Translations under genes and position numbers: made by a program | Shown here: in pieces, positions 1 to 11,937 of the stretch | Layout: every line of letters begins with the position of its first letter | Position numbering within the stretch: position 1 is the stretch's first letter | Assembly: GCA_021399345.1 (NCBI GenBank) | Contig: JAAFKI010000172.1 | Location: forward strand, 1-11,937 | Length of the DNA stretch: 11,937 nucleotides | Source: Candidatus Heimdallarchaeota archaeon | GTDB lineage: Archaea; Asgardarchaeota; Heimdallarchaeia; Heimdallarchaeales; Heimdallarchaeaceae | Direction of reading: 5' to 3' | Notes under the pieces: model-generated | Told to the model about the DNA's origin: nothing | The model's input: only the letters and a program-made list of their open reading frames with translations | Databases searched by the model: none

Positions 1-657
1 GCAGGATATCTCAATTACGATAGTTTTCATACAACTCATGGAAGATCAATTCCTTTTGCAATAGGGTTGAGTGTAACAGATCCAGAAAGAAAAGTTATTG
101 TAATTTCGGGAGATGGGGATCTTTTTGCTATAGGTGGAAATCATTTTATCCATGCAGCTAGAAGAAACGCCAATATTACAGTTGTTTGTGTTAATAATTT
201 CAATTATGGTATGACAGGAGGTCAAGCAGGTCCAACTACATACGCGGGTCAATTTCAGACAACCGCTCCTTATGGGTCACTAGAAGAGCCATTCAATATT
301 CCTAATCTTGCTGCAAGTTGTGGTGCAGTTTATGTTGCAAGATATACTGCTTTAGATGTTAGAAGAGTAAAGGAAGCCTTTTCTGAAGCAATAGCTAAAA
401 ATGGGTTCTCTTTCGTTGAAGTTTTAGGTAGCTGTCCTACAACTTATGGTCGTCGAAACCAATTAGCTGAAGGGAAGAAGATTCTGGAATTTTTTGCTGA
501 AAAAACTGTTCTTAACCACGATGCAGACACTAGAGACGTTCGAATTGACAAGAACAGTCCTATAATAGTTGGTAAATTTGTTGATATTGAAGATAAACCA
601 ACTCTAACAGATAATTTACTAGCGCTTCAGAGAGTTAGTCAAGCTAAGAAGGGATGA
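1..657 (+). CDS. korB: 2-oxoacid:ferredoxin oxidoreductase subunit beta (TPP-binding), probably 2-oxoglutarate synthase; 5'-truncated
   Basis: Frame is open from base 1 (AGYLNYDSFHTTHGRSIPFAIG...), so the TTG at 67 is not the start. Has the KorB-type HTTHGR motif, the TPP/Mg motif GDGD...NN, YGMTGGQ and CPT. Stop TGA at 655-657. Substrate is inferred from motif type and context. Confidence 0.9.
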   Translation, partial: AGYLNYDSFHTTHGRSIPFAIGLSVTDPERKVIVISGDGDLFAIGGNHFIHAARRNANITVVCVNNFNYGMTGGQAGPTTYAGQFQTTAPYGSLEEPFNIPNLAASCGAVYVARYTALDVRRVKEAFSEAIAKNGFSFVEVLGSCPTTYGRRNQLAEGKKILEFFAEKTVLNHDADTRDVRIDKNSPIIVGKFVDIEDKPTLTDNLLALQRVSQAKKG

Positions 658-661
658 TAAT

Positions 662-1210
662 ATGAGTAGAGTAGAAATTCGTTTTGCAGGTTTTGGTGGT
701 CAGGGAATAGGACTTATGGGGAGGCTCGTAGGTGAAGCTGTAAGCTTATTGGAAGAGGGAAAAAATTCTGTATTGACACAAAGCTATGGTCCAGAAAGTA
801 GGGGTGGAGCAAGTAGCACAGATGTTGTAATTGACGAAGGAGAAATCGATTATCCTAAGGCAACTGAACTGGATTACTTTGTCGTTTTGTCAGAAGAAGC
901 TTATCATAAGTATATTCCAAAACTCAAAGAAGGTGGAATTCTCTTTGTTGAAGAGGATTTAGTTACAATAGATGAAAATGCAAAGAAAGCTAAAAAGATA
1001 TTTAAAATTCCAGCAACTAAAATTGCTGAATCTCTTGGAAGCAGACTTTATGCTAACATAGCCATGTTAGGTTTCGTATGTGCTAACACAACAGACATCT
1101 TCTCTGAAGTATCTATGCTTACAATAATGAAAGAAAAAATCAAAGCAAGATTTGTTGAAAAAAATCTAATTGCTTTCCAAAAAGGTATGGAGTATAAATC
1201 AAACTCCTGA
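662..1210 (+). CDS. korC: 2-oxoacid:ferredoxin oxidoreductase subunit gamma
   Basis: IRFAGFGGQG and QSYGPESRGG motifs, plus late NIAMLG and N..AF..G motifs. Directly follows the beta subunit. Confidence 0.9.
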   Translation: MSRVEIRFAGFGGQGIGLMGRLVGEAVSLLEEGKNSVLTQSYGPESRGGASSTDVVIDEGEIDYPKATELDYFVVLSEEAYHKYIPKLKEGGILFVEEDLVTIDENAKKAKKIFKIPATKIAESLGSRLYANIAMLGFVCANTTDIFSEVSMLTIMKEKIKARFVEKNLIAFQKGMEYKSNS

Positions 1211-1231
1211 AAATAAGACGAAGGTTTGGAA

Positions 1232-1681
1232 ATGTCTACACAAAAGAATACAGAACTGGAAGAATTCGAACCAAACATAATTGGTTTCTTATGTAATTGG
1301 TGTTCCTACGCAGGAGCAGATCTCGCAGGAACTAGCAGAATCCAATATCCTCCTAATGTTAAAATCATCAAGGTAATGTGTTCTGGTAGAGTAAATCCAA
1401 TGTACATAATTAATGCATTTCAGCAGGGTGCTGATGGAGTTCTAGTCAGTGGATGCCACCCCGGAGATTGTCATTACACTAGTGGAAATTACTTAGCTAG
1501 GAGAAGAATCGCTACCATGAAAAAGCTACTGGAGTTTCTTGGTATTGAGCCTGATAGAGTAAGAATGACCTGGGTTTCAGCTGCTGAAGGTAGAAAATAT
1601 GCTGACGTCGTCAGAGAACTTACTGATGACATCAAAAAATTAGGTCCTATGACCAAATTTAGGAGGGAAAAAGAATGGTAG
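1232..1681 (+). CDS. mvhD: MvhD/FlxD-family [2Fe-2S] subunit
   Basis: FLCNWCSYAGADLAG, MCSGRV, GADGV, GCHPGDCHY and WVSAAEG motifs. ATG at 1232 preferred over TTG at 1226 because GAAGGT (1220-1225) is suitably spaced. Equivalent to flxD in this context. Confidence 0.95.
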   Translation: MSTQKNTELEEFEPNIIGFLCNWCSYAGADLAGTSRIQYPPNVKIIKVMCSGRVNPMYIINAFQQGADGVLVSGCHPGDCHYTSGNYLARRRIATMKKLLEFLGIEPDRVRMTWVSAAEGRKYADVVRELTDDIKKLGPMTKFRREKEW

Positions 1682-2661
1682 AGAACAAAGAACTAATCAA
1701 GGTTGTTGAGGAAACCGTTTCTCGAGATGACGTGAAATACGTTGTTGGTTATAAGAGAGGCACTTATGGTTTTCAAATCAAACCTGCCTTTGCTTATAGC
1801 GCTAAAGACGCAAAGGAGTTCTTTTACTCTCCATTATGTGCAAAGAATCTAGCTACTTATCCACTTCTTGAAGAAAAATTACCTTTAAGAAGAGGCGAGG
1901 AAGCAGAACATAAGAAGATTGGAATTGTTGTAAAGGGTTGTGACTCCCGTGCCATAATCCAAATCATTCAGGAAAAGGGATTAGAAAGGGAAGATGTTGT
2001 TTTAATAGGCATCCCTTGTAAAGGTGTAATCGACCCAAAAAAGATAGCTAAAAGATTTCCTAAACAATCAAAGTTTGTTGATGTTGAGGAAAATAACAAC
2101 GACGAATACATATTAGAAATAGGTGGAACAAGCCATAAAATCCCTAAAGACGAATTGCTTTCAGATGTATGTAAAAGCTGTGAATACCCAAATCCACTTT
2201 TATATGACATACTTATAGGTGAAGCTGAAGAAGAATTTCAACCTGAACACTTCAACAGAGTAGATGAATTAAAAGAAAAAACAATAGAAGAAAGATGGGA
2301 GTATTGGGAGAAGCATTTTCAAAATTGCATTCGTTGTTATGCATGTAGAGAAGCATGCCCACTTTGTTATTGTAAAACATGTATGGTTGATCTATTAGAA
2401 CCACAATGGGTCAGACGATCTGTAAATCTATCAGAAAATACTGCTTGGAACGTAATGCGTGCATTTCATCTTGCTGGCAGGTGTATTAGTTGTGGTGAAT
2501 GCGAACGAGCTTGCCCTGTTAACATTCCTCTAATGGAATTAAACAAGTTCGTTGAGAAAGAAGTTAAAGAGATGTTTAATTATACTGCTGGGCTCGATAC
2601 TGAAGAAAAACCATTCCTGGGAAGTTTTCGACCAGATGATCCGGAGGATTTCATTTCGTGA
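1675..2661 (+). CDS. flxC: FlxC-like Fe-S protein (FdhB/FrhB-related N-terminus, C-terminal 2x[4Fe-4S])
   Basis: KGCDSRA motif, CKSC, CIRCYACREACPLCYCKTC and HLAGRCISCGECERACP. SD AGGAGG at 1661-1666. Overlaps mvhD by 7 nt. Symbol assigned from position in an Flx-Hdr cluster. Confidence 0.8.
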   Translation: MVENKELIKVVEETVSRDDVKYVVGYKRGTYGFQIKPAFAYSAKDAKEFFYSPLCAKNLATYPLLEEKLPLRRGEEAEHKKIGIVVKGCDSRAIIQIIQEKGLEREDVVLIGIPCKGVIDPKKIAKRFPKQSKFVDVEENNNDEYILEIGGTSHKIPKDELLSDVCKSCEYPNPLLYDILIGEAEEEFQPEHFNRVDELKEKTIEERWEYWEKHFQNCIRCYACREACPLCYCKTCMVDLLEPQWVRRSVNLSENTAWNVMRAFHLAGRCISCGECERACPVNIPLMELNKFVEKEVKEMFNYTAGLDTEEKPFLGSFRPDDPEDFIS

Positions 2662-2670
2662 GGAATTAAA

Positions 2671-3708
2671 ATGGAACAACTAACATTACCAAAAGAAAAA
2701 TTACCTGAATTGCTTGGAGAGATTGGTTCTAAATTTGAACTGATTGGACCAAAGGAAGAAAATGGATTCTTAGCCTTCAGGAAAATAAATGATCCAAAAG
2801 AGGTCAATCTAGATATTTTACTTTCAAGAGTACCTCCTAAGTCTTTGATATTCCAACAAACTGAAACTCTCTTTACATATGCCAAAGGAAAAGATTCTAA
2901 GGTTCAAACTCCAAAAATTGATGAATCAGTAAGAGTAATTTTTGGAATTCGCCCATGCGATGCACGAGGATATGATATCATAGATCCAGTTTTTATGGGA
3001 AAAAAAGAGGGCGATTATATTGATCCATTTTATACAAAGAAAAGAAATAGAAGCATTCTGATTGGTCTAAGTTGTAATGAACCAGATACCAACTGTTTCT
3101 GTACATCATTTGATGATAGTCCAGCGAATACTAAACATGTAGATATTCTATTTACAGATATAGGCGACACATATTTTGTTGAAGTTGTGACAGAAAAAGG
3201 AGAAGATCTAATCAAAAACCTAAGCAAAATCTTCTCAAAGGCAACTGAAAAAGAAAGTACTATCAGAAAGGAGACAGAAAGGGCAGCAATTAAGGCAATC
3301 TCCCGAAAGATGAACACAGAAGGAACTGTTGAAAAACTAGACAAAATGTTTGATCACGAATTTTGGGTAGAAACTGCTAGAAGTTGTATTGGTTGCGGGA
3401 TTTGTACTTATTTGTGTCCGACATGCCATTGCTTTGATATTCAGGATGAGAGCACTTTGAAACTAGGTGGGAGAGTACGTGTATGGGATTCATGTATGTA
3501 TGAAGAATATACCCATCATGCATCAGGTCATAATCCTAGACCCTCAAGAATGAATAGAGTAAGAAATAGAGTTTATCACAAATTCAACTATTTCCCCAAA
3601 AATGATGGGATCTTTGGATGTACTGGTTGTGGTAGATGTATTGATTATTGTCCTGTTAATATTGATATAATTGAAGTAATTGACAAAGTGAAGGAGGCCA
3701 ATATATGA
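2671..3708 (+). CDS. flxB: FlxB-like Fe-S protein (AsrA/sulfhydrogenase beta family)
   Basis: PPK..F, FGIRPCD, C......CFC, CIGCGICTYLCPTCHCF, WDSC and GCTGCGRCIDYCP motifs. Confidence 0.85.
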   Translation: MEQLTLPKEKLPELLGEIGSKFELIGPKEENGFLAFRKINDPKEVNLDILLSRVPPKSLIFQQTETLFTYAKGKDSKVQTPKIDESVRVIFGIRPCDARGYDIIDPVFMGKKEGDYIDPFYTKKRNRSILIGLSCNEPDTNCFCTSFDDSPANTKHVDILFTDIGDTYFVEVVTEKGEDLIKNLSKIFSKATEKESTIRKETERAAIKAISRKMNTEGTVEKLDKMFDHEFWVETARSCIGCGICTYLCPTCHCFDIQDESTLKLGGRVRVWDSCMYEEYTHHASGHNPRPSRMNRVRNRVYHKFNYFPKNDGIFGCTGCGRCIDYCPVNIDIIEVIDKVKEANI

Positions 3709-4547
3709 CAGACGAAAACCCCTACCAACCTTGGATAGCGAAAATTATCAGTATAAAAGAAGAAGCTAGTGGAGAAAGAGCAATAAAAACATTCAGACTT
3801 GAATTCCAAGATGAGGAAGTCAAAAAGAAGTTCACCTTCCTACCTGGTCAATGTATTATGGTAAGTGTATTTGGAACAGGTGAAAGTATGTTCGCTATAT
3901 CTTCATCACCCACTCAAAAAGATTACATAGAAGTTAGTGTAATGAGATATGGTAAACTTACCAAAGCACTGCATCTAAAAGAAGAAGGGGAATTAGTTGG
4001 AGCAAGGGGTCCATATGGGAACAGCTTCAAAATCGATGAATGGAAAGGCAAGGATATCCTCTTTTTAGGTGGAGGAATAGGACAAGCTCCACTTCGTTCT
4101 GTGATTAATTACTGCAAAGATAACAGAAAAGATTATGGAAAAATAGATATCGTTTATGGTGCGAGAACTTCTCTTGACCTCTGTTATAAGGATGAATTTG
4201 CAGAAATGAGTAAGAAGGATGATTTAAGCATTCATCTTTCTATAGATGTTGAAGAAGAAGGTTGGGATCAGTTTGTAGGGTTTGTTCCAGATAATTTGAA
4301 GAGACTTAATCCTTCTCCAAAAAATACAATAGCTATAACTTGTGGTCCCCCAATAATGATTAAATTTGTAATTCAAAATCTCTTGGAACTTGGTTTCAAA
4401 GAAGACCAAGTTTACACAACTTTGGAAATGAGAATGAAATGTGGTATAGGCATATGCGGAAGGTGTAACATAGGAAATCTCTATGTCTGCAAAGATGGAC
4501 CAGTATTCTCATATGATCAAATAAAAGATATTCAAGGAGATATGTAA
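3705..4547 (+). CDS. flxA: FlxA-like FAD/NAD(P)-binding [2Fe-2S] flavoprotein (AsrB/PyrK/sulfhydrogenase gamma family)
   Basis: PGQ, RGPYGN, GGGIGQAPLR, YGART, CGPP and MKCGIGICGRC...CKDGPVF motifs. ATGA overlap with the upstream gene; SD AAGGAGG at 3691-3697. Confidence 0.88.
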   Translation: MTDENPYQPWIAKIISIKEEASGERAIKTFRLEFQDEEVKKKFTFLPGQCIMVSVFGTGESMFAISSSPTQKDYIEVSVMRYGKLTKALHLKEEGELVGARGPYGNSFKIDEWKGKDILFLGGGIGQAPLRSVINYCKDNRKDYGKIDIVYGARTSLDLCYKDEFAEMSKKDDLSIHLSIDVEEEGWDQFVGFVPDNLKRLNPSPKNTIAITCGPPIMIKFVIQNLLELGFKEDQVYTTLEMRMKCGIGICGRCNIGNLYVCKDGPVFSYDQIKDIQGDM

Positions 4548-4562
4548 AGGCGTGATAATATT

Positions 4563-6530
4563 ATGAAGATTGGAGTTTATTTATGCGAGTGTGGATCTAA
4601 CATTGCAAGTACTGTTGATGTTGAGGATCTAGCAGAACAAGCTAAAGAATTTCCAAATGTAGAAGTCAGCAGAGTTTACAAATATGTGTGTTCTGACCCC
4701 GGTCAACTATTGATAAAACAGGATATTGAAGAAAAACAACTAGATAGAATTGTAGTTGCAGCCTGCTCTCCAAGAATGCATGAACCTACATTCAGGGCAG
4801 TGTTAGAAGACATGGGATTGAATCCTTATGTCTTAGAAATCGTCAATATCAGAGAACAAGTTTCTTGGGTTCATGACGATAAAAAAAAGGGTACAGTTAA
4901 AGCAGCCTCATTGCTTAAAGGTGCAGTTTTAAGAGCTTCTTTAATGCACCCCTTAGAAAGGAAAAAGGTTGGCGTAACACCTAATGCACTCGTGATAGGT
5001 GGTGGTATTGCAGGTATCCAAGCTTCTCTTGATTTAGCTGATATGGGATTTGATACTACACTTGTTGAAAAATCTGCAACAATTGGTGGAAAAATGTCTC
5101 AGCTTGACAAAACATTTCCAACATTAGATTGTTCACAGTGTATTTTAAGTCCTAAAATGGTAGATGTTAATCGCCATCCAAATATTGACTTACTTGCACT
5201 AAGTGAGGTTGTAGAAGTTGAGGGATATGTTGGAAATTTCAAAGTAAAGATTAAGAAAAATCCTACTTATGTATTAGCAGATAAATGTACTCTTTGTGAT
5301 GATTGTGTTCCTGTCTGTCCAGTTATAGAACACGATGAATATAATCAAGGATTTTCTCCAAGAAGAGCGATTTACATACCATATCCTCAAGCAGTCCCAG
5401 CATCATATCTTATAGATCCTAATTCTTGTTTAGGTATAGAACCGCTCATTTGTTCAAAATGTAAAGATGTTTGCGGACCAGAAGCAATAGATTTTGATAT
5501 GAAACCAGAGATAATTGAAAAAGAAGTTGGTGCCATAATTGTAGCAACAGGATATGAACCCTATCCTATAGAAAATATTGGTGAGTATGGTTATGGAACA
5601 ATTCCAGATGTGATTTCTGGTTTGGACTTTGAGAGAATAGTTTCTGCAAGTGGTCCAACTGATGGTACAATTCGTCGTCCATCTGATGGGAAAATACCTA
5701 AAACAGTTGTTTTCGTCCATTGTGCAGGATCTCGTGACCCAAGCAAACATCTACCTTATTGTTCGAAAGTTTGTTGTATGTATGCAACCAAACATGCTTT
5801 ACAGTACAAACATTTAGTGCATGATGGAACAGCTATAAACTTCTTCATTGACATAAGAACTGCAGGAAAGGATTATGAAGAATTCTACCAAAGAGCAGCT
5901 GAGGAAGACCAAGTTATATATATAAGAGGTAAAGTTTCTGAAGTTTTCCAAGATGGAGATAGACTTCTAGTAAAAGGCGCTGATACTCTAACAGGAGAAA
6001 CCGTTGAACTTCATGCTGATTTAGTAGTTCTAGCCACAGGTTTAATGCCCAGTGCAGGAACTAAAGAAATTGCAAGTCTTCTAAACCTATCAGTTGGTAT
6101 GAACGGTTTCATCAGGGAAGCACATCCAAAATTAAAGCCTGTAGATACTGCAATTGCAGGTGTTTTTGTTGCAGGAACTGCTACAGGACCAAAAGACATT
6201 CCAGAAACAGTTTCAAATGCTAGTGGAGCAGCTTCTAGAGCCGCAGGAATATTATCACAAGATGAATTAGAAATTGAAGGAACTGTTGCTCAGGTAGATG
6301 AAGACCTATGTCGAGGTTGTGGTCTATGTGCTGAAGCTTGTCCTTATAGCGCAATTGAAATTAAAGCAATAAATAAATACGGGCACGCTTTGCGGGTAGC
6401 TTTTGTAAATGAAGCAATGTGTAAAGGATGTGGTTCATGTGCCGCAGCTTGTTTGAACGGCGCAATTAATCAGCTAGGATATACAGATAGTCAAATTCTT
6501 GCCCTGATAGGGGCATTGGGAGAGGGATAA
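4563..6530 (+). CDS. hdrA: Heterodisulfide reductase subunit A (bifurcating FAD/Fe-S subunit)
   Basis: N-terminal VYLCECG, YVCS and AACSPR; Rossmann GGGIAG; DKTFPTLDCSQC; inserted ferredoxin domain; CAGSR...YCSKVCCMYATK; GPKDIP; C-terminal 2x[4Fe-4S]. Canonical length (655 aa). Confidence 0.97.
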   Translation: MKIGVYLCECGSNIASTVDVEDLAEQAKEFPNVEVSRVYKYVCSDPGQLLIKQDIEEKQLDRIVVAACSPRMHEPTFRAVLEDMGLNPYVLEIVNIREQVSWVHDDKKKGTVKAASLLKGAVLRASLMHPLERKKVGVTPNALVIGGGIAGIQASLDLADMGFDTTLVEKSATIGGKMSQLDKTFPTLDCSQCILSPKMVDVNRHPNIDLLALSEVVEVEGYVGNFKVKIKKNPTYVLADKCTLCDDCVPVCPVIEHDEYNQGFSPRRAIYIPYPQAVPASYLIDPNSCLGIEPLICSKCKDVCGPEAIDFDMKPEIIEKEVGAIIVATGYEPYPIENIGEYGYGTIPDVISGLDFERIVSASGPTDGTIRRPSDGKIPKTVVFVHCAGSRDPSKHLPYCSKVCCMYATKHALQYKHLVHDGTAINFFIDIRTAGKDYEEFYQRAAEEDQVIYIRGKVSEVFQDGDRLLVKGADTLTGETVELHADLVVLATGLMPSAGTKEIASLLNLSVGMNGFIREAHPKLKPVDTAIAGVFVAGTATGPKDIPETVSNASGAASRAAGILSQDELEIEGTVAQVDEDLCRGCGLCAEACPYSAIEIKAINKYGHALRVAFVNEAMCKGCGSCAAACLNGAINQLGYTDSQILALIGALGEG

Positions 6531-6544
6531 AGAGGTGTAGAGAA

Positions 6545-6955
6545 ATGTCTTACGAATATTTAAAATTTGGAAAAGAAGAGAAAGACTTCATTGCAAAAAT
6601 AGAAGAAATTTCAGGACAAAATATCTACAGTTGCTATCAATGCGGTAAGTGTTCTGCAGGCTGTGCTTTTAGTGATAAAATGGATAGATCAGTTAGTCAA
6701 CTTATTCACCTTATTCAAATCGGGCAAAAAGAAAAAGTTCTGAAATCAAATACTCATTGGGTTTGTTCTAGTTGTTTAACTTGCACTGTTAGATGTCCTC
6801 GAGAAATTGATGTTGCAGCATTAATGGAGGCAGTACGAGAATATAGCTTGAGAGAGGATTATGAGAAAGTTATAATTTCTGAAATTTCAAAAGAAGCTTT
6901 AGATAAGCTTCCAAATATTGCTTTAGTCAGCAATTTTCGCAAAAAAACAGGATGA
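6545..6955 (+). CDS. hdrC: Heterodisulfide reductase subunit C (short form, 2x[4Fe-4S])
   Basis: CYQCGKCSAGC and WVCSSCLTCTVRCP motifs. Lies between hdrA and hdrB. SD GAGGTG at 6532-6537. Confidence 0.92.
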   Translation: MSYEYLKFGKEEKDFIAKIEEISGQNIYSCYQCGKCSAGCAFSDKMDRSVSQLIHLIQIGQKEKVLKSNTHWVCSSCLTCTVRCPREIDVAALMEAVREYSLREDYEKVIISEISKEALDKLPNIALVSNFRKKTG

Positions 6956-6963
6956 TCTAGCAA

Positions 6964-7881
6964 ATGGTACAATACTCTTACTTTCCAGGATGTAATCTAA
7001 AAACAAATGCTAAAGGTTTTGAAGAAACTGCTATAGCTGTCAGTAAGAAATTAAATGCTGAACTAGTTGAAATGCCGAATTGGAATTGCTGTGGAACTGT
7101 ACATACTCTTACCTCAGACAATATCATGAAACGTATTGCACCTATTCGAGTATTATCGAGATCAAGAAAACATATTGAAACACTTGAAGAATCTCAAAAT
7201 CAAGTAGTTACTCTTTGTTCTATGTGTAATAGTACTCTAAAAATTGTCAATAATGAAGTTAAGAAAGATCAAGAAATTTTAGATAAGATTAATTATCAAT
7301 TAGAAGAAGATGAAGAAACTTACGAACCAGATATGGAAGTAAAGCATTTCTTGGAAATTCTTCGAGATACAATAGGATATGAAAAAATCTCTGAAAAAGT
7401 GGTCAATCCGCTTGAAGGTCTGAAAATTTCACCTTACTATGGTTGTATGTTATTACACCCTGAAGAAGCTAAGATTGACGATGAAGAGATGCCTGATGTT
7501 TTAGAAAGTTTAGTTGAAAGTTTAGGAGCAGAGCTAGTAATGTCTCCTTTATTCAAATTCTGTTGTGGCTCCTATCACATAGTAGATCAAGAAATTATTG
7601 TTTCTTCCCAAGTTGAGAAAATTGTTGAAGCTGCAAAACAAAGAGGAGCAAATGCACTAGTACTTGCTTGCCCTTTATGTGCTTACAACATAGACCAACA
7701 GCAAAAAGCTATGGCAAAAAATACTGCAGGAAAATCACCTATTCCGGTGTTTTACTTTACTCAGTTGATGGCTATAGCAATGGGAGAACCAGTGAAAATC
7801 AATCACTTTAATGATCATTTCATAAATCCTGAACCTCTCCTCAAGGAATTAGGATTAATTGGGAGGAAAAAAGCAAAATAG
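6964..7881 (+). CDS. hdrB: Heterodisulfide reductase subunit B (two CCG domains)
   Basis: Two complete CCG motifs: YFPGC..WNCCG..CSMC and YYGC..FCCG..CPLC. C-terminal IPVFYFTQL. Confidence 0.95.
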   Translation: MVQYSYFPGCNLKTNAKGFEETAIAVSKKLNAELVEMPNWNCCGTVHTLTSDNIMKRIAPIRVLSRSRKHIETLEESQNQVVTLCSMCNSTLKIVNNEVKKDQEILDKINYQLEEDEETYEPDMEVKHFLEILRDTIGYEKISEKVVNPLEGLKISPYYGCMLLHPEEAKIDDEEMPDVLESLVESLGAELVMSPLFKFCCGSYHIVDQEIIVSSQVEKIVEAAKQRGANALVLACPLCAYNIDQQQKAMAKNTAGKSPIPVFYFTQLMAIAMGEPVKINHFNDHFINPEPLLKELGLIGRKKAK

Positions 7882-7893
7882 AGGGTTAGAAAA

Positions 7894-8610
7894 ATGTCAA
7901 AGACCAAAACAAAAGAAGAGAATGAACCCCTTACGGTGAAAATATATATTATGGGCTCTGCGCATGAAGTACCCGCATCTCTAACAATAATGAAAGCGAT
8001 GGAGTATGCAGGTTTTAAAATTAAAAGGGGTGCTGGATGTAGAGCTGGATTTTGTGGAGCTTGTGCAACATTATATCGAAAAGCAGGTGACTACAGAATA
8101 TATGCTGCACTAGCATGTCAGACACAAGTTGAAGATGGAATGGTATTAACTCAATTACCATTTGTACCTGCTCCTAAGGCAATCTACGATGTGGATTCAC
8201 TTAAACCTACAGCGAGTTCAATCCTGAAATATTATCCTGAAGTAGCAAGATGTTTAAGTTGTAACGCTTGTTCAAAAGTGTGCCCTCAGGAAATTCAAGT
8301 TATGGACTATGTGCAATATAGTCTTCAAGGTCAGATTGATAAAGCTGCAGAGGTGTCTTTTGACTGTGTTCAATGTGGTTTATGTGCGATTAGATGTCCT
8401 GCAGAAATTCCACAGTATCATGTTGGTATGCTTGCTAGAAGACTACATGGAAAATACAACACTAGCACTCCAGAAACTCTAATTGAAAGAGTTGAAGAAA
8501 TTGAAAACGGTGTCTTTGAGGAGGGTTTTAAAGAACTGATTTCTCTCTCAAAGGATGGTTTAAAGAAACGATATACTGAACGAGATTTCGTTGATCAGAA
8601 AAAGGCGTGA
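7894..8610 (+). CDS. Fumarate reductase/succinate dehydrogenase-type Fe-S subunit, TfrB-like, lacking CCG domains
   Basis: [2Fe-2S] motif GCRAGFCGAC...LAC and two four-Cys motifs (CLSCNACSKVCP, CVQCGLCAIRCP). Adjacent to an FrdA/SdhA-family flavoprotein. Confidence 0.85.
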   Translation: MSKTKTKEENEPLTVKIYIMGSAHEVPASLTIMKAMEYAGFKIKRGAGCRAGFCGACATLYRKAGDYRIYAALACQTQVEDGMVLTQLPFVPAPKAIYDVDSLKPTASSILKYYPEVARCLSCNACSKVCPQEIQVMDYVQYSLQGQIDKAAEVSFDCVQCGLCAIRCPAEIPQYHVGMLARRLHGKYNTSTPETLIERVEEIENGVFEEGFKELISLSKDGLKKRYTERDFVDQKKA

Positions 8611-8615
8611 TAAAA

Positions 8616-10280
8616 ATGAAGATGATAAGAGGTTATCCTGAAGATATGCGAAAAAGCATAGATAATGTTAATAAAACAAGAAACAAGCGTATCGACCAAA
8701 TTATAGAAGATTTATCTCTAAAAGAACGAAAAGAAGTTCTTGACAATTTTCACCCAGATTATAATCCAAAATTTAAAAGGAATATTTCTTGGGGAGGTAA
8801 CAAAGGTGATAATGTACCCAATGAAGTTGCAGATGTTATTGAAGCTTATCCAATGGTAAATCCAGATGATATAGATTTAAACCAAATCGATTATGATGTT
8901 AATATATTAATCATTGGTGCAGGCGGTGCTGGTACCTCAGCAGCCTTGTGGGCCAACTACTCTGGAGTACCAAAAGAGGAAATTCTGCTTGTTACAAAAC
9001 TCAGACTTGGAGATTGCAATACAGTCATGGCGCAAGGTGGTATTCAAGCAGCTGATCGTCCTGTAGATAGTCCATTAATTCATTATATGGATGCAATAGG
9101 AGGGGGACATTTCGAGAACAAACCTGAGCTGGTCAAAGCCTTAGTTAGTGATGCCCCGAAAATTATCAAATGGCATAAGGACCTTGGAGTAATGTATGAT
9201 TGTACTGAAGATGGTAGTTTTATTGAGAATCCTGGAGGTGGTACATCAAGAAATAGAATGCATTGTTCTAAGGATTACACTGGACTGGAGATGTTTAGAA
9301 CATTAAAAGATGAGATAATAAATAAGGAAATTCCTTATCTAGAATTTTCTCCCGCTGTTGAGCTTATTACAAATGAAACTGGAGGAATAACAGGAGCTGT
9401 TCTATATAACATCGAAACAAAACAATACTTTGTTGTTAGAGCTAAAACAACCATCTTAACCACAGGTGGTTTTGGAAGACTTCATGTAGCAGGTTTTCCA
9501 ACATCTAATCACTATGGTGCAACTATGGATGGTGTAGTTATGGCTTATCGTGCAGGTGCTAAATTACGAGATTTAGATGCTACACAATTCCATCCAACTG
9601 GTGCAGCATTTCCAGAACAAATTGTAGGACTACTGATTACTGAAAAAGTTCGAAGTTTAGGAGGTCAAGTTCTTGGACGAAATGGGGAACAAATTTGTTA
9701 TCCATTGGAACCCAGAGATGTTGAAGCATCATCTATAATCAAATGTTGTGCAGCAACTGACAATTATATTGAAACTCCAACCCAAATGAGAGGAGTCTGG
9801 CTAGATAGTCCTTTAATTGAGGAAATCAAAGGAAAAGGTACAATTATGAAAAATCTTAGTGCTATGCATCGAATGATGAATAGGTTTGATATCGATATAA
9901 CCGTAGATCCAATTCTTGTTTATCCTACCTTACATTATCAGAATGGTGGTGTAGAGCATGATGAGAGTTGTCACACATCTCTTAAGGGACTTTTAGCAGC
10001 AGGGGAAATTTCCGGAGGAGTTCATGGTAAGAATCGTCTTATGGGTAATTCTCTTTTAGAAATAAATGTATTCGGAAGAAGGGCTGGTATCACAGCAGCT
10101 AATGAATACAAGAAAAAGAGTACCACAGGAAAACTTTCTCTTGCTCATGTTCATAAATCAATTAAGGCTCTTGATGCTCTAAATCTAAAAGATAAAAGAT
10201 ATTCTCCAACCATTTTACCAGAGTATAGAAGTGACGTAGTTAGAGACAGATTAGTTCAGTTATATGAAGAATCACTCTAA
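8616..10280 (+). CDS. Fumarate reductase/succinate dehydrogenase-family flavoprotein, TfrA-like
   Basis: IIGAGGAG, NTVMAQGGI, TTGGFG, QFHPT, LITEKVR, PRD, LHYQNGG and AAGE...HGKNRLMGNSL: the dicarboxylate-site His/Arg/Thr/Glu residues are present. ATG at 8616 preferred over GTG at 8607 because AGGCGTGA then acts as its SD. Confidence 0.9.
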   Translation: MKMIRGYPEDMRKSIDNVNKTRNKRIDQIIEDLSLKERKEVLDNFHPDYNPKFKRNISWGGNKGDNVPNEVADVIEAYPMVNPDDIDLNQIDYDVNILIIGAGGAGTSAALWANYSGVPKEEILLVTKLRLGDCNTVMAQGGIQAADRPVDSPLIHYMDAIGGGHFENKPELVKALVSDAPKIIKWHKDLGVMYDCTEDGSFIENPGGGTSRNRMHCSKDYTGLEMFRTLKDEIINKEIPYLEFSPAVELITNETGGITGAVLYNIETKQYFVVRAKTTILTTGGFGRLHVAGFPTSNHYGATMDGVVMAYRAGAKLRDLDATQFHPTGAAFPEQIVGLLITEKVRSLGGQVLGRNGEQICYPLEPRDVEASSIIKCCAATDNYIETPTQMRGVWLDSPLIEEIKGKGTIMKNLSAMHRMMNRFDIDITVDPILVYPTLHYQNGGVEHDESCHTSLKGLLAAGEISGGVHGKNRLMGNSLLEINVFGRRAGITAANEYKKKSTTGKLSLAHVHKSIKALDALNLKDKRYSPTILPEYRSDVVRDRLVQLYEESL

Positions 10281-10311
10281 TTTCATCTCTTTCTTTTTTC
10301 ACAATTTTTTT
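10281..10311 (+). terminator. Putative archaeal-type pyrimidine/oligo-T terminator of the redox operon
   Basis: TTTCATCTCTTTCTTTTTTCACAATTTTTTT directly after the flavoprotein stop. No evident hairpin. First sizeable intergenic gap (61 nt) in 10 kb. Confidence 0.6.
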
Positions 10312-10316
10312 ATAGA
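10309..10316 (+). promoter_or_regulatory. Possible TATA box for the phosphatase gene (leaderless transcript)
   Basis: TTTATAGA lies 26-33 nt upstream of ATG 10342, which has no SD. No good purine-rich BRE. Confidence 0.3.
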
Positions 10317-10341
10317 TAATATTCGATAATATTCTGAATCA

Positions 10342-10905
10342 ATGAAAAACACATACATCTTTCTTCGACATGCATTGACAACAATAGACAAAAGTCTACC
10401 TGCAGAAAAGTGGGTAATATCAGAAGCAGGAATAGAAGAAGTATGTAATGTAGTTTCCTCTGGAAAATTTGACGATGTAGATGTAATAATCTCTTCCTCG
10501 GAAAAGAAAGCAATTCAAACAGCTTTTTACCTATCAGAACGAATAGAGAAGGATATTAACTTAAATCCTAACCTAAAGGAATTAGATAGAGGGCAAGAAT
10601 TTATTGAGACTCAAGAAGATTATGAAACGAAAGTCTGGAGAATTTTCGATAACCCATCAGAATGTAGTTTCGGTTGGGAAACTGCTGAAAATGCGCTAGG
10701 AAGATTCAAAAGGGGGATATCGCGAATCGAAAACACCCATTCTAATAAGAAAATCTTCAGTGTTAGTCATGGAATTATTTTAACTCTATTCTTTGGAGAT
10801 CTTTTAGGATTAAAAAACGAAGAACTATTTCCAAGATGGAAGAAACTGAAATTCTGTGCATGGGGAACAATACTAGATGGAAAAGTAGATAGAGATATAG
10901 TTTAA
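10342..10905 (+). CDS. Histidine phosphatase (phosphoglycerate mutase-like) family protein
   Basis: N-terminal IFLRHA (RHG-type phospho-His motif), SS...AIQTA, LKE, E..E and C-terminal VSHG. Confidence 0.85.
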   Translation: MKNTYIFLRHALTTIDKSLPAEKWVISEAGIEEVCNVVSSGKFDDVDVIISSSEKKAIQTAFYLSERIEKDINLNPNLKELDRGQEFIETQEDYETKVWRIFDNPSECSFGWETAENALGRFKRGISRIENTHSNKKIFSVSHGIILTLFFGDLLGLKNEELFPRWKKLKFCAWGTILDGKVDRDIV

Positions 10906-10925: not shown

Positions 10926-10936
10926 AAAGCTTAAAT
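10926..10936 (+). promoter_or_regulatory. Possible BRE/TATA promoter of the methyltransferase gene
   Basis: AAAGCTTAAAT resembles archaeal BRE+TATA. It overlaps ATG 10935 and so would favour the downstream GTG 10992 start. Confidence 0.35.
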
Positions 10937-10991
10937 GAAAAGACCCGAATCGTATTTTTTAGTAGTAACCTTTGTACGAACAGGTGAAATT

Positions 10992-11660
10992 GTGAAAACC
11001 AATGAAGCGGTAGAGCTGAACCTTGAGCATTTTGATGAGTATTATACAGTAATAGTAGATAGAAGGGGAGCAATAGGAACTTCAGTACAGAATCAAAGAT
11101 TTCAGCTTTTTCTAAAGTTATTACCAAAAAGAAGTTTGATTCTTGACCAAGGATGTGGTACAGGTTATGTCGCACAACTTCTTTTAGATGAAGGTCATAG
11201 AGTCGATTGTTTAGACATTTCACCTATAGCAATTAAAAAATGTAAGGAATTTTTTACTTTAGCTGGATTTAACTCAGAGACATACAATCTTTGGGTTCAA
11301 GATTTTTTAACATTTGAATATCCTGAAACTAAGTATGATGGAATTATGGATTTATTCACTCTACATTTTGTGCCGCATGAGGACCAAAAGAGGATTCTTG
11401 AGTCGATATTTAGAGCTCTCAAACCTGGGGGTTACCTTTTCTTAGGTATTATGCTAACTGGTAGCATAAAGATAAGTGAACCAAATTCTAGGATAACAGA
11501 GAATGGCGGGACATTATTAAAAGTCGATGAAATAAAAGCTTACAGATGCTTTTATTTATGGAATCCTTATGAAATAAGATCTGTTCTAACCAATTTAGGT
11601 TTCAAAATCATTCATTTTTTTCATCCATTATCTAGCATTGAATTCATATGTCAAAAATAA
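10992..11660 (+). CDS. Class I SAM-dependent methyltransferase
   Basis: Motif I ILDQGCGTG, then LDIS, QDF, YDGI..FTLHF and LKPGGYL. ORF is open from ATG 10935, but GTG 10992 has SD AGGTGA at 10982-10987. Start uncertain. Confidence 0.85.
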   Translation: MKTNEAVELNLEHFDEYYTVIVDRRGAIGTSVQNQRFQLFLKLLPKRSLILDQGCGTGYVAQLLLDEGHRVDCLDISPIAIKKCKEFFTLAGFNSETYNLWVQDFLTFEYPETKYDGIMDLFTLHFVPHEDQKRILESIFRALKPGGYLFLGIMLTGSIKISEPNSRITENGGTLLKVDEIKAYRCFYLWNPYEIRSVLTNLGFKIIHFFHPLSSIEFICQK

Positions 11661-11794: not shown

Positions 11795-11937
11795 ATGAAT
11801 GGATGGATAATAGCCTTAATTATTCTTTCTTCTATATTATTTCCCATAATTTTATTATCTTACAGAGCTTATTACGGAGTTCACTCAAAAAACAAACAAA
11901 GCAAGAAAGTATCCGAAGATCCACTAGATAATCCAGA
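11795..11937 (+). CDS. Hypothetical protein with N-terminal hydrophobic segment (membrane anchor or signal); 3'-truncated
   Basis: Not in the ORF track. Reads MNGWIIALIILSSILFPIILLSYRAYYGVHSKNKQSKKVSEDPLDNP and stays open to the window end; about 18 hydrophobic residues followed by a basic stretch. Confidence 0.6.
   Translation, partial: MNGWIIALIILSSILFPIILLSYRAYYGVHSKNKQSKKVSEDPLDNP

Follow-up and report, generated by a model that had tools for sequence, protein, structure and literature searches.

A korDABC-flxDCBA-hdrACB-sdhBA operon in a Heimdallarchaeota archaeon, a candidate for soluble fumarate reduction coupled to electron bifurcation

Described Hdr-linked fumarate reductases and the Heimdallarchaeota operon

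What HdrABC does in organisms that lack coenzyme M and coenzyme B is an old question, and the operon described here suggests one answer, namely that its electrons reach fumarate via an anchor-less flavoenzyme. The operon lies on contig JAAFKI010000172.1 (assembly GCA_021399345.1) of a Candidatus Heimdallarchaeota archaeon, a stretch of 11,937 nucleotides that was analysed as a whole and is called the window below, and it joins genes of a 2-oxoacid:ferredoxin oxidoreductase (Kor), of an Flx-Hdr module and of a soluble fumarate-reductase-like pair (SdhBA). On balance, we favor the view that the Flx, Hdr and SdhBA proteins form a soluble nine-protein complex that would bifurcate electrons from NAD(P)H to fumarate and to ferredoxin, with Kor working on the same ferredoxin; complex formation, bifurcation, the identity of the donor, the direction of flux and the specificity of Kor for 2-oxoglutarate are all points that we infer. 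In terms of described systems, the window is an archaeal member of an already proposed kind of Hdr-linked soluble fumarate reductase operon, and its own value is modest in that it is one more copy of an arrangement proposed in the literature. What it adds is genome context, that is, the sole hdrBC copy found, an Flx/Mvh-HdrA cluster devoid of hdrBC, a coexisting canonical SdhAB and an ATP-citrate-lyase cluster.

Among the closest described arrangements is that of Rubin-Blum et al. (2019, mSphere; PMC6315080, Suppl. Note 3), who reported korABCD, tfrAB and flxABCD-hdrABC interspersed in the reductive tricarboxylic acid (TCA) cycle gene cluster of tubeworm symbionts (Ca. Endoriftia and the Escarpia symbiont) and of Thioflavicoccus mobilis, all Gammaproteobacteria, and who hypothesized a complex in which the electrons of NADH are bifurcated so as to reach a soluble fumarate reductase and 2-oxoglutarate:ferredoxin oxidoreductase without an intermediate. 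The window shares with these genomes the same gene families in one co-oriented cluster, as well as an ATP-citrate lyase in the genome, but the earlier carriers are bacterial, and the order in the window has the kor genes first and hdrCB directly before sdhBA. It is important to note that the link between the window and the symbiont and T. mobilis clusters runs through further bacterial members of the family, with 50-58% identity. The initial annotation of the window did not recognise co-transcription with kor in a probable archaeon as described. As a claim of novelty this goes too far, since the same interspersion and the direct-bifurcation hypothesis were published in 2019 for Gammaproteobacteria (PMC6315080). 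A review by Buckel and Thauer (2018) has FlxABCD and fumarate reductase in its reference list alone. What is left is the archaeal setting: our literature search returned no paper describing the operon arrangement in an Asgard archaeon and only general mentions of Frd, Hdr and the reductive TCA cycle in Asgard genomes, and yet the operon is present in public genomes of Heimdall, Thermoplasmata and other archaea.

A bacterial relative occurs in Pseudoclostridium thermosuccinogenes, whose “succinate operon” was put forward by Koendjbiharie and van Kranenburg (2019, preprint, via PMC7282089). According to PMC7282089, this operon combines a fumarase gene with Flx-Hdr genes and genes of a new type of fumarate reductase; its proposed role is to reduce ferredoxin as succinate is formed, and its transcripts go up about 4-fold under CO2 limitation. 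As in the window, the soluble fumarate reductase pair stands directly behind the flx-hdr genes. The difference is that the succinate operon has no kor, includes fumarase, and has a role in fermentative succinate formation rather than in a reductive TCA branch. Four gut/clostridial loci of our own survey (L070, L078, L083 and L086) read hdrBC-hdrA-flxDCBA-sdhBA.

More distant systems share single modules with the window. The MvhAGD-HdrABC complex of Methanothermobacter (5ODC, 8RVU) has HdrA, HdrB, HdrC and MvhD subunits homologous to those of the window; as is proposed for the window, its bifurcation yields reduced ferredoxin, and the electrons end on fumarate for 2-oxoglutarate synthesis. Methanothermobacter reportedly possesses a thiol:fumarate reductase, TfrAB, said to have been described by Heim et al. 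1998. In methanogen TfrB, an SdhB-like and an HdrB-like half are naturally fused, whereas the window has them as separate neighbouring genes. The methanogen system differs further in having H2 as the donor and free CoM-SH/CoB-SH (coenzyme M and coenzyme B thiols) as the coupling agents, whereas the window would use NAD(P)H, its Fe-S subunit has no CCG domain, and no McrA was found in the genome (88.6% complete). The FlxABCD-HdrABC system of Desulfovibrio vulgaris, for which DsrC is reportedly the proposed acceptor and whose operon is said to be linked to an alcohol dehydrogenase (Ramos et al. 2015), resembles the window in its set of modules (an NAD(P)H flavoprotein, two Fe-S proteins, an MvhD-like protein and HdrABC), but the genes run flxABCD-hdrABC there and flxDCBA-hdrACB in the window. 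SdhB also has a partner with a CCG domain in type E complex II, as found in Sulfolobus (SdhABEF) and Campylobacter (MFR). The likeness to the window lies in this HdrB-like CCG partner and in an Fe-S subunit with an extra cysteine and a second [4Fe-4S] cluster instead of [3Fe-4S]; the type E enzymes, however, contain a flavoprotein of the canonical form and exchange electrons with membrane quinones, whereas the CCG protein of the window is paired with HdrC and HdrA. Finally, the flavoprotein of the window has the same dicarboxylate-site residues as canonical complex II (SQR/QFR), but the pair is devoid of the covalent-FAD histidine, the C-terminal domain, the [3Fe-4S] motif and the membrane anchor.

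Layout, subunits and recurrence of the operon

Eleven co-oriented + strand open reading frames (ORFs) cover positions 1-10280 of the window. Their ten junctions are, in order, a 4-nt gap, a 15-nt gap, a 7-nt overlap, a 9-nt gap, a 4-nt overlap, gaps of 15, 14, 8 and 12 nt, and a final 4-nt overlap between sdhB and sdhA. The initial description of eleven co-oriented genes with gaps of at most 21 nt was therefore accurate, with no gap above 15 nt and overlaps of 4-7 nt. The window is a complete contig (C112) of a 3.27-Mb genome that consists of 199 contigs and that belongs, by the names of the closest public proteins, to Candidatus Heimdallarchaeaceae. Its first 83 bases (1-83) are identical to the end of contig C71, and its last 83 (11855-11937) form an exact overlap with contig C146. 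These overlaps are probably k-mer overlaps of the assembly graph, and the true locus is therefore continuous across C71-C112-C146. It had been proposed to inspect the upstream sequence for korA and korD, and both are indeed present on C71, along with the codons for the initial 95 residues of KorB; joining C71 to the window restores an in-frame KorB of 286 aa. Because C71 supplies korD, korA and the 5' part of korB, the complete unit comprises 13 genes, korDABC-flxDCBA-hdrACB-sdhBA. Upstream of it lie about 240 nt that are rich in A and T and include a TTTAAATA box. At the other end, a T-rich intergenic tract (10281-10341, + strand), read directly from the sequence and followed by the TATA-like box of the next gene, was correctly given as the end of the operon: TTTCTTTTTT and TTTTTTT runs lie within the 61-nt spacer between the last stop and the start of the next gene, and the oligo-T tract is a probable archaeal terminator. 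Scans with sigma-70 promoter and intrinsic-terminator models, which are inapplicable to archaea, found fewer or no more sites than in shuffled sequences.

Gene identities were assigned with Pfam and NCBIfam profiles, which bore out the kor, flx and hdr labels and the presence of a soluble fumarate-reductase-like pair, whereas the label “tfr” given to the pair did not hold. The SdhB-like Fe-S subunit (238 aa; 7894-8610, + strand) has one [2Fe-2S] motif and two full four-cysteine motifs (CxxCxxCxxxC); all 12 of its cysteines are invariant among 34 homologues, and a Pfam search for a CCG domain in this subunit gave no PF02754 match. When aligned with E. coli SdhA and M. smegmatis Sdh1, the SdhA/FrdA-like flavoprotein (557 aa; 8607-10280, + strand; PF00890, FAD_binding_2, 206 bits) shows asparagine at the position of the histidine that carries covalent FAD (His45 in the E. 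coli enzyme). Asparagine occupies this position throughout the flavoprotein family, and the FAD is predicted to be bound non-covalently. In complex II, loss of the covalent FAD is established to abolish succinate oxidation, not fumarate reduction; a non-covalent flavin would therefore favor fumarate reduction.

Further features set this flavoprotein family apart. The dicarboxylate-site residues are kept (QFHPT, ITE, PRD, LHY and NRL) and are invariant in 21 family members, and the C-terminal domain gave no PF02910 match, with the chain stopping about 70 residues past the FAD domain. The N terminus carries an extension of 95 residues that is 60-95% identical within the family across archaea and bacteria; a miscalled GTG start as the origin of this extension was ruled out by that identity and by a fold with a predicted local distance difference test (pLDDT) score of about 90. 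The AlphaFold2 model of the whole flavoprotein has a pLDDT of 87; among solved structures, those of E. coli FrdA and mycobacterial SdhA come closest to it in fold. The flavoprotein scores well under the cut-offs of all Sdh, Frd, TfrA and NadB models, and against the TfrA model (NF004900) it reaches 306 bits (cut-off 718) over positions 6-423 of 546. We considered, and rejected, the possibility that the pair is TfrAB itself: the Fe-S subunit has no CCG half (40 bits to the TfrB model, cut-off 385), and the scores of the operon pair to the TfrA/TfrB models (306/40 bits) are lower than those of the canonical SdhAB of the same genome (450/140 bits). HdrC, HdrB and the SdhB-like protein match successive parts of the TfrB model. 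Because a canonical, histidine-bearing SdhAB and a FumC are also present in the genome, the operon pair is a specialised paralogue.

Upstream of the pair, hdrA (4563-6530, + strand; 829 bits to the HdrA2 model) encodes the candidate bifurcating flavoprotein. Residues 2-651 of HdrA align full-length to HdrA of the solved Mvh-Hdr complexes (8RVU, 5ODC; 718 bits) with their Cys motifs lined up, and the protein is of the methanogen type, with N-terminal, inserted and C-terminal ferredoxin domains and an FAD-binding thioredoxin-reductase fold. The hdrC product (6545-6955, + strand) has two CxxCxxCxxxC ([4Fe-4S]) motifs and matches TIGR03290 and QmoC models, and the hdrB product (6964-7881, + strand) matches PF02754 twice and has two complete CCG motifs with exactly ten cysteines (positions 10, 42, 43, 85 and 88, and 161, 200, 201, 236 and 239). 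Among 34 homologues from same-type operons, nine of these ten cysteines never vary, and the tenth, Cys10, is present in at least 90%. HdrB aligns full-length to methanogen HdrB and scores 130 bits against the model of SdhE (type E complex II).

The Flx module precedes hdrA. The mvhD/flxD gene (1226-1681, + strand; PF02662, FlpD, 196 bits) encodes a [2Fe-2S] adaptor to HdrA that has five cysteines and aligns with the MvhD portion at the C-terminal end of the HdrA2 model; the flxC-like gene (1675-2661, + strand) encodes an Fe-S protein in which the CxxCxxCxxxC motif occurs twice and FrhB_FdhB_C is matched weakly; and the flxB-like gene (2671-3708, + strand) encodes an Fe-S protein of the AsrA/sulfhydrogenase-beta (AsrA/HydB-like) type (PF17179, 119 bits), which scores 165-221 bits against the ShyB, HydB and AsrA models, each time under the cut-off. 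The flxA-like gene (3705-4547, + strand) encodes an NAD(P)H:flavin module with FAD_binding_6, NAD_binding_1 and 2Fe-2S domains (PF00970, PF00175 and PF10418) that matches sulfhydrogenase-gamma and AsrB models; its NAD_binding_1 domain does not separate NADH from NADPH. The module thus has the FlxA domains, the FlxB and FlxC Fe-S proteins, an MvhD homologue as FlxD, and genes that adjoin hdrA. No 19-residue segment of any of the 13 operon proteins exceeds 1.5 in hydrophobicity (maximum KD19 1.48), i.e., no membrane helix is present.

The operon begins with Kor, of which all four subunit types are present: alpha, beta (binding thiamine pyrophosphate, TPP), gamma and delta (with 2x[4Fe-4S]). Within the window lie the 3' part of korB, encoding the TPP-binding beta subunit (218 codons; 1-657, + strand; PF02775, TPP_enzyme_C, 1e-35), with 2-oxoglutarate ferredoxin oxidoreductase beta as its best NCBIfam match, and korC, encoding the gamma subunit (POR gamma; 662-1210, + strand; PF01558, 1.5e-33), which scores 178 bits against NF006323 (cut-off of 235 not reached). 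KorA scores 287 and 240 bits to solved 2-oxoglutarate synthases vs. 54 bits to pyruvate:ferredoxin oxidoreductase, and the best named matches of Kor are 2-oxoglutarate enzymes (NF007206, NF007207 and OorD; PDB 8YS5 and 6N2N). The predicted substrate of Kor is 2-oxoglutarate.

A synteny search for kor, flx, hdr and fumarate reductase genes had been proposed, and the linkage does recur widely. The flavoprotein family counts more than 8000 database proteins at E<1e-30 and occurs in at least 595 species genomes; we surveyed the 10-kb neighbourhood of its genes at 80 loci, 39 of which have full flanks. These loci come from archaeal and bacterial phyla (Heimdall, Thermoplasmata, Theionarchaea, Bathyarchaeia, Culexarchaeia, WOR-3, Aminicenantes, Cloacimonadota, Chloroflexota, Bacillota, Spirochaetota, Desulfobacterota and others). 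An sdhB-like gene is near the flavoprotein gene at 75 of the 80 loci (38 of the 39 with full flanks), followed by hdrB (55/80; 28/39 with full flanks), hdrC (54/80; 26/39), hdrA (49/80; 29/39), mvhD (43/80; 27/39), kor (about 30/80; korA at 17/39) and flx (about 23/80; flxA at 15/39). Gene order varies by lineage and the single strand is kept throughout: Heimdall loci are ordered as in the window, Thermoplasmata have korDABC-hdrA-mvhD-hdrCB-sdhBA, Aminicenantes and Eubacteriales have hdrB-korDABC-hdrA-flxDCBA-sdhBA, and gut Clostridia have the order quoted above (hdrBC-hdrA-flxDCBA-sdhBA). In most lineages, hdrB is the gene immediately 5' of sdhB. That is, the stable core is hdrCB-sdhBA plus HdrA, and the input module and Kor are interchangeable additions.

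Within a sample of 301 Asgard genomes, an orthologue of the flavoprotein was found in 25 of the 28 genomes of the window's own family, and in none of 11, 21 and 68 genomes of several sister families. Matches to the flavoprotein gene in four genomes of the same genus (G298, G193, G148 and G139) contain one or two in-frame stops, all TAA, which may be errors or may simply reflect the aligner running past the end of the gene. A fusion of the SdhB-like and SdhA-like parts in one ORF of 794 aa seems to occur in some bacteria (L054:9284-11668), and one family protein (P0126, 727 aa) has about 200 extra N-terminal residues.

Proposed electron path and rival explanations

Under the hypothesis that we favor, NAD(P)H would be oxidised at the FlxA-like flavoprotein and its electrons would reach the FAD of HdrA by way of FlxB/FlxC and the MvhD-type [2Fe-2S] protein and be split there. 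The high-potential branch would run from HdrC to the two non-cubane clusters of HdrB, on to the clusters of the SdhB-like subunit and finally to the FAD of the SdhA-like subunit, which would reduce fumarate to succinate, and the low-potential branch would reduce ferredoxin. Since it has neither quinone anchor nor CCG domain, the SdhB-like subunit must take its electrons from a protein partner. Fumarate would thus stand in for the CoM-S-S-CoB heterodisulfide of methanogens. KorDABC, presumably co-expressed, would draw on the same ferredoxin pool, for which physical attachment is unnecessary, and would work in the reductive direction, carboxylating succinyl-CoA to 2-oxoglutarate. Such carboxylation is plausible because the genome holds an ATP-citrate-lyase cluster, which is a hallmark of the reductive TCA cycle. 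This cluster (C31:706-9063) is co-oriented and consists of an isocitrate-dehydrogenase-like gene, three genes of the aconitase/isopropylmalate (IPM)-isomerase type and an aclA/aclB-like pair, the products of which are a SucC-like protein of 438 aa and a protein of 713 aa with a SucD-like part fused to a citryl-CoA-lyase domain; the pair holds the only citrate-synthase-family domain found in the genome.

With textbook potentials, the reaction of 2 NADH with fumarate and oxidised ferredoxin yields -33 to -52 kJ for ferredoxin at -500 to -400 mV, so that the initial statement that reduction is exergonic and its reverse uphill, by the same amount, is correct. The wiring that had been suggested at the outset, from NAD(P)H through FlxA and HdrA to fumarate, ferredoxin and Kor, agrees with the motifs, the anchor-free proteins, the linkage and the ATP-citrate-lyase context, while the chemistry itself is something that we infer. 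If true, this would be a quinone-free route from NAD(P)H to both succinate and low-potential ferredoxin and a cheaper reductive TCA sequence, and it would be relevant to a wide range of anaerobes given the number of species genomes in which the flavoprotein family occurs.

Several observations weigh against this hypothesis or parts of it. Our literature search found no biochemical test of the complex or its orthologues, which the papers treat as a proposal. About one quarter of the full-flank loci have no nearby hdrB and more than half have no kor; that is, coupling to Kor is optional. All four Kor subunits are under the 2-oxoglutarate equivalog cut-offs, and the generic KorA model PRK08659 alone passes. 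HdrB retains two full CCG motifs, a motif that arose for disulfide chemistry, and a small thiol/disulfide carrier is conceivable. F420H2 could be the donor instead of or beside NAD(P)H because FlxC weakly matches the FrhB_FdhB_C (F420/flavin-binding) domain and two genes of the genome (C41:176217-176897 and C169:177100-177795) score above cut-off as CofE, the F420 glutamyl ligase. A search confined to malate dehydrogenase of the Ldh type found none in the 88.6%-complete genome. Finally, when HdrB and the SdhB-like subunit were folded as a pair, the score was 0.55 vs. 0.00 for the best control, with a partner pLDDT of 80 or more and agreement between runs in at least 93% of contacts. In the calibration of this approach, 58 of 80 solved complexes passed the mark, as did 2 of 110 mismatched pairs, and passes at or below 0.60 comprised 7 of the 80 solved complexes and both of the passing mismatches; the paired fold weakly suggests that HdrB and the SdhB-like subunit are in contact.

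Alternatively, the coupling might be mediated by a thiol, with Flx-HdrABC reducing a disulfide carrier (DsrC-like, lipoyl or a low-molecular-weight heterodisulfide) at HdrB and the thiol then feeding fumarate, as methanogen Hdr and TfrAB do. This is one option offered by Rubin-Blum et al. 2019 (PMC6315080), and it would account for the conservation of the HdrB CCG cysteines, the CCG motif being the disulfide-reducing site in solved Hdr. However, it would leave a lone CCG site both to reduce and to re-oxidise the carrier, as the SdhB-like subunit has no thiol-oxidising module; neither McrA in the genome nor a carrier gene in the operon was found, and sdhB directly follows hdrB in most lineages. 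We therefore regard thiol coupling as unlikely. It is also conceivable that the complex runs in reverse as a confurcating enzyme, i.e., that Kor oxidises 2-oxoglutarate and that its reduced ferredoxin pulls succinate oxidation, with NAD(P)+ being reduced. Asgard archaea are usually modelled as fermenters of amino acids and organic acids, Kor reactions are reversible, and ferredoxin is common to Kor and the complex in either direction. Nevertheless, we consider confurcation quite unlikely: it is uphill by 33-52 kJ at standard potentials, the flavoprotein has no covalent-FAD histidine as needed for succinate oxidation, a canonical histidine-bearing SdhAB is available for that reaction elsewhere in the genome, and the ATP-citrate-lyase cluster points to reductive flux.

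A simpler arrangement would be a non-bifurcating, soluble NAD(P)H- or F420H2:fumarate reductase in which HdrA and the Fe-S subunits are a mere wire and Kor is only co-regulated. The full-length, methanogen-type HdrA of the window, with all its ferredoxin domains and 718 bits to bifurcating enzymes, argues against it, as do the loss of 67 kJ per fumarate, which would be unusual for an energy-limited anaerobe, and the linkage of the ferredoxin-dependent Kor in at least 17 of the 39 full-flank loci. That some HdrA homologues do not bifurcate (sHdr-type, match 6TJR), that many loci consist of the sdhBA-hdrCB core without kor, and that no biochemical report of ferredoxin reduction by the complex was found in the literature speaks for such an enzyme, to which we nonetheless assign a low probability. 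Still less probable, in our view, is a substrate other than fumarate, be it L-aspartate (as in NadB) or another enoate. The scores come close (249 bits to NadB models vs. 255-306 to Sdh/Frd models), the active-site residues of NadB are the same, no further NadB-like gene was found in the genome by tblastn, and the family has its unique N-terminal extension and no C-terminal domain. The nearest folds are FrdA and SdhA, however, and an SdhB-like partner accompanies the flavoprotein in 75 of the 80 loci. To our knowledge, NadB never has an SdhB-like Fe-S partner. In addition, the bacterial operon, as presented in PMC7282089, includes fumarase and is induced with succinate production.

Genome context and flanking genes

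The genome sets the operon among few other Hdr genes. The possibility that the Hdr of the window is one of several was rejected, as tblastn gave no second hdrB or hdrC in the genome and a CCG-family search gave, besides HdrB, one other CCG protein, of 404 aa with two CCG domains (C182:19944-20579). A second cluster (C21:55264-69208) reads mvhG-mvhA-flxD-flxC-flxB-flxA-hdrA-hdrA-hycI-mvhD-CoA-disulfide-reductase/rhodanese, where hycI is a maturation protease gene. Its flxDCBA paralogues are 62-76% identical to the operon copies, its second HdrA (1117 aa) has an inserted GltD-like part (Fer4_20 and Pyr_redox_2), and the cluster contains neither hdrB nor hdrC; its HdrA paralogues may share the HdrBC of the operon. 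Divergently upstream of this cluster lies a four-gene, group 3b-like sulfhydrogenase. The same pattern, a second Flx/Mvh-HdrA cluster without hdrBC, was observed in a genome of the same genus (G130), and in a closed genome of the same family (G074) this operon encodes the sole HdrA and the sole CCG protein of HdrB size.

It is tempting to speculate, and we put this forward as a tentative and rather doubtful extension, that HdrBC-SdhBA might be the sole acceptor module for every HdrA-based bifurcation in Heimdallarchaeaceae, including the hydrogenase- and Flx-linked paralogues without hdrBC of their own. Fumarate would thereby be the general high-potential sink, and the ferredoxin of the reductive TCA sequence (for Kor and ATP-citrate lyase) would be supplied by fumarate-driven bifurcation in close relatives of eukaryotes. 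For Asgard biology, the operon bears on carbon fixation and on the balance of NAD(P)H, H2 and ferredoxin in Heimdall archaea.

The canonical sdhA (571 aa, with the covalent-FAD histidine, 745 bits to TIGR01812) and sdhB are found at C77:28646-32503 (- strand), with no anchor genes seen nearby. The ORF of a class II fumarase (FumC) adjoins them and matches its profile only from position 101; the N-terminal part of the fumarase may lie in another frame within a 300-nt gap (frameshift or assembly error). Fragments of SucC and SucD are present at contig ends.

On the 3' side of the operon, the window continues with two genes on the same strand, one of the histidine-phosphatase family (10342-10905) and one for an S-adenosylmethionine (SAM)-methyltransferase (10935-11660). 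In two further Heimdall genomes (L007 and L008) the operon likewise has the phosphatase gene on its 3' side, and in L007 alone the methyltransferase gene as well.

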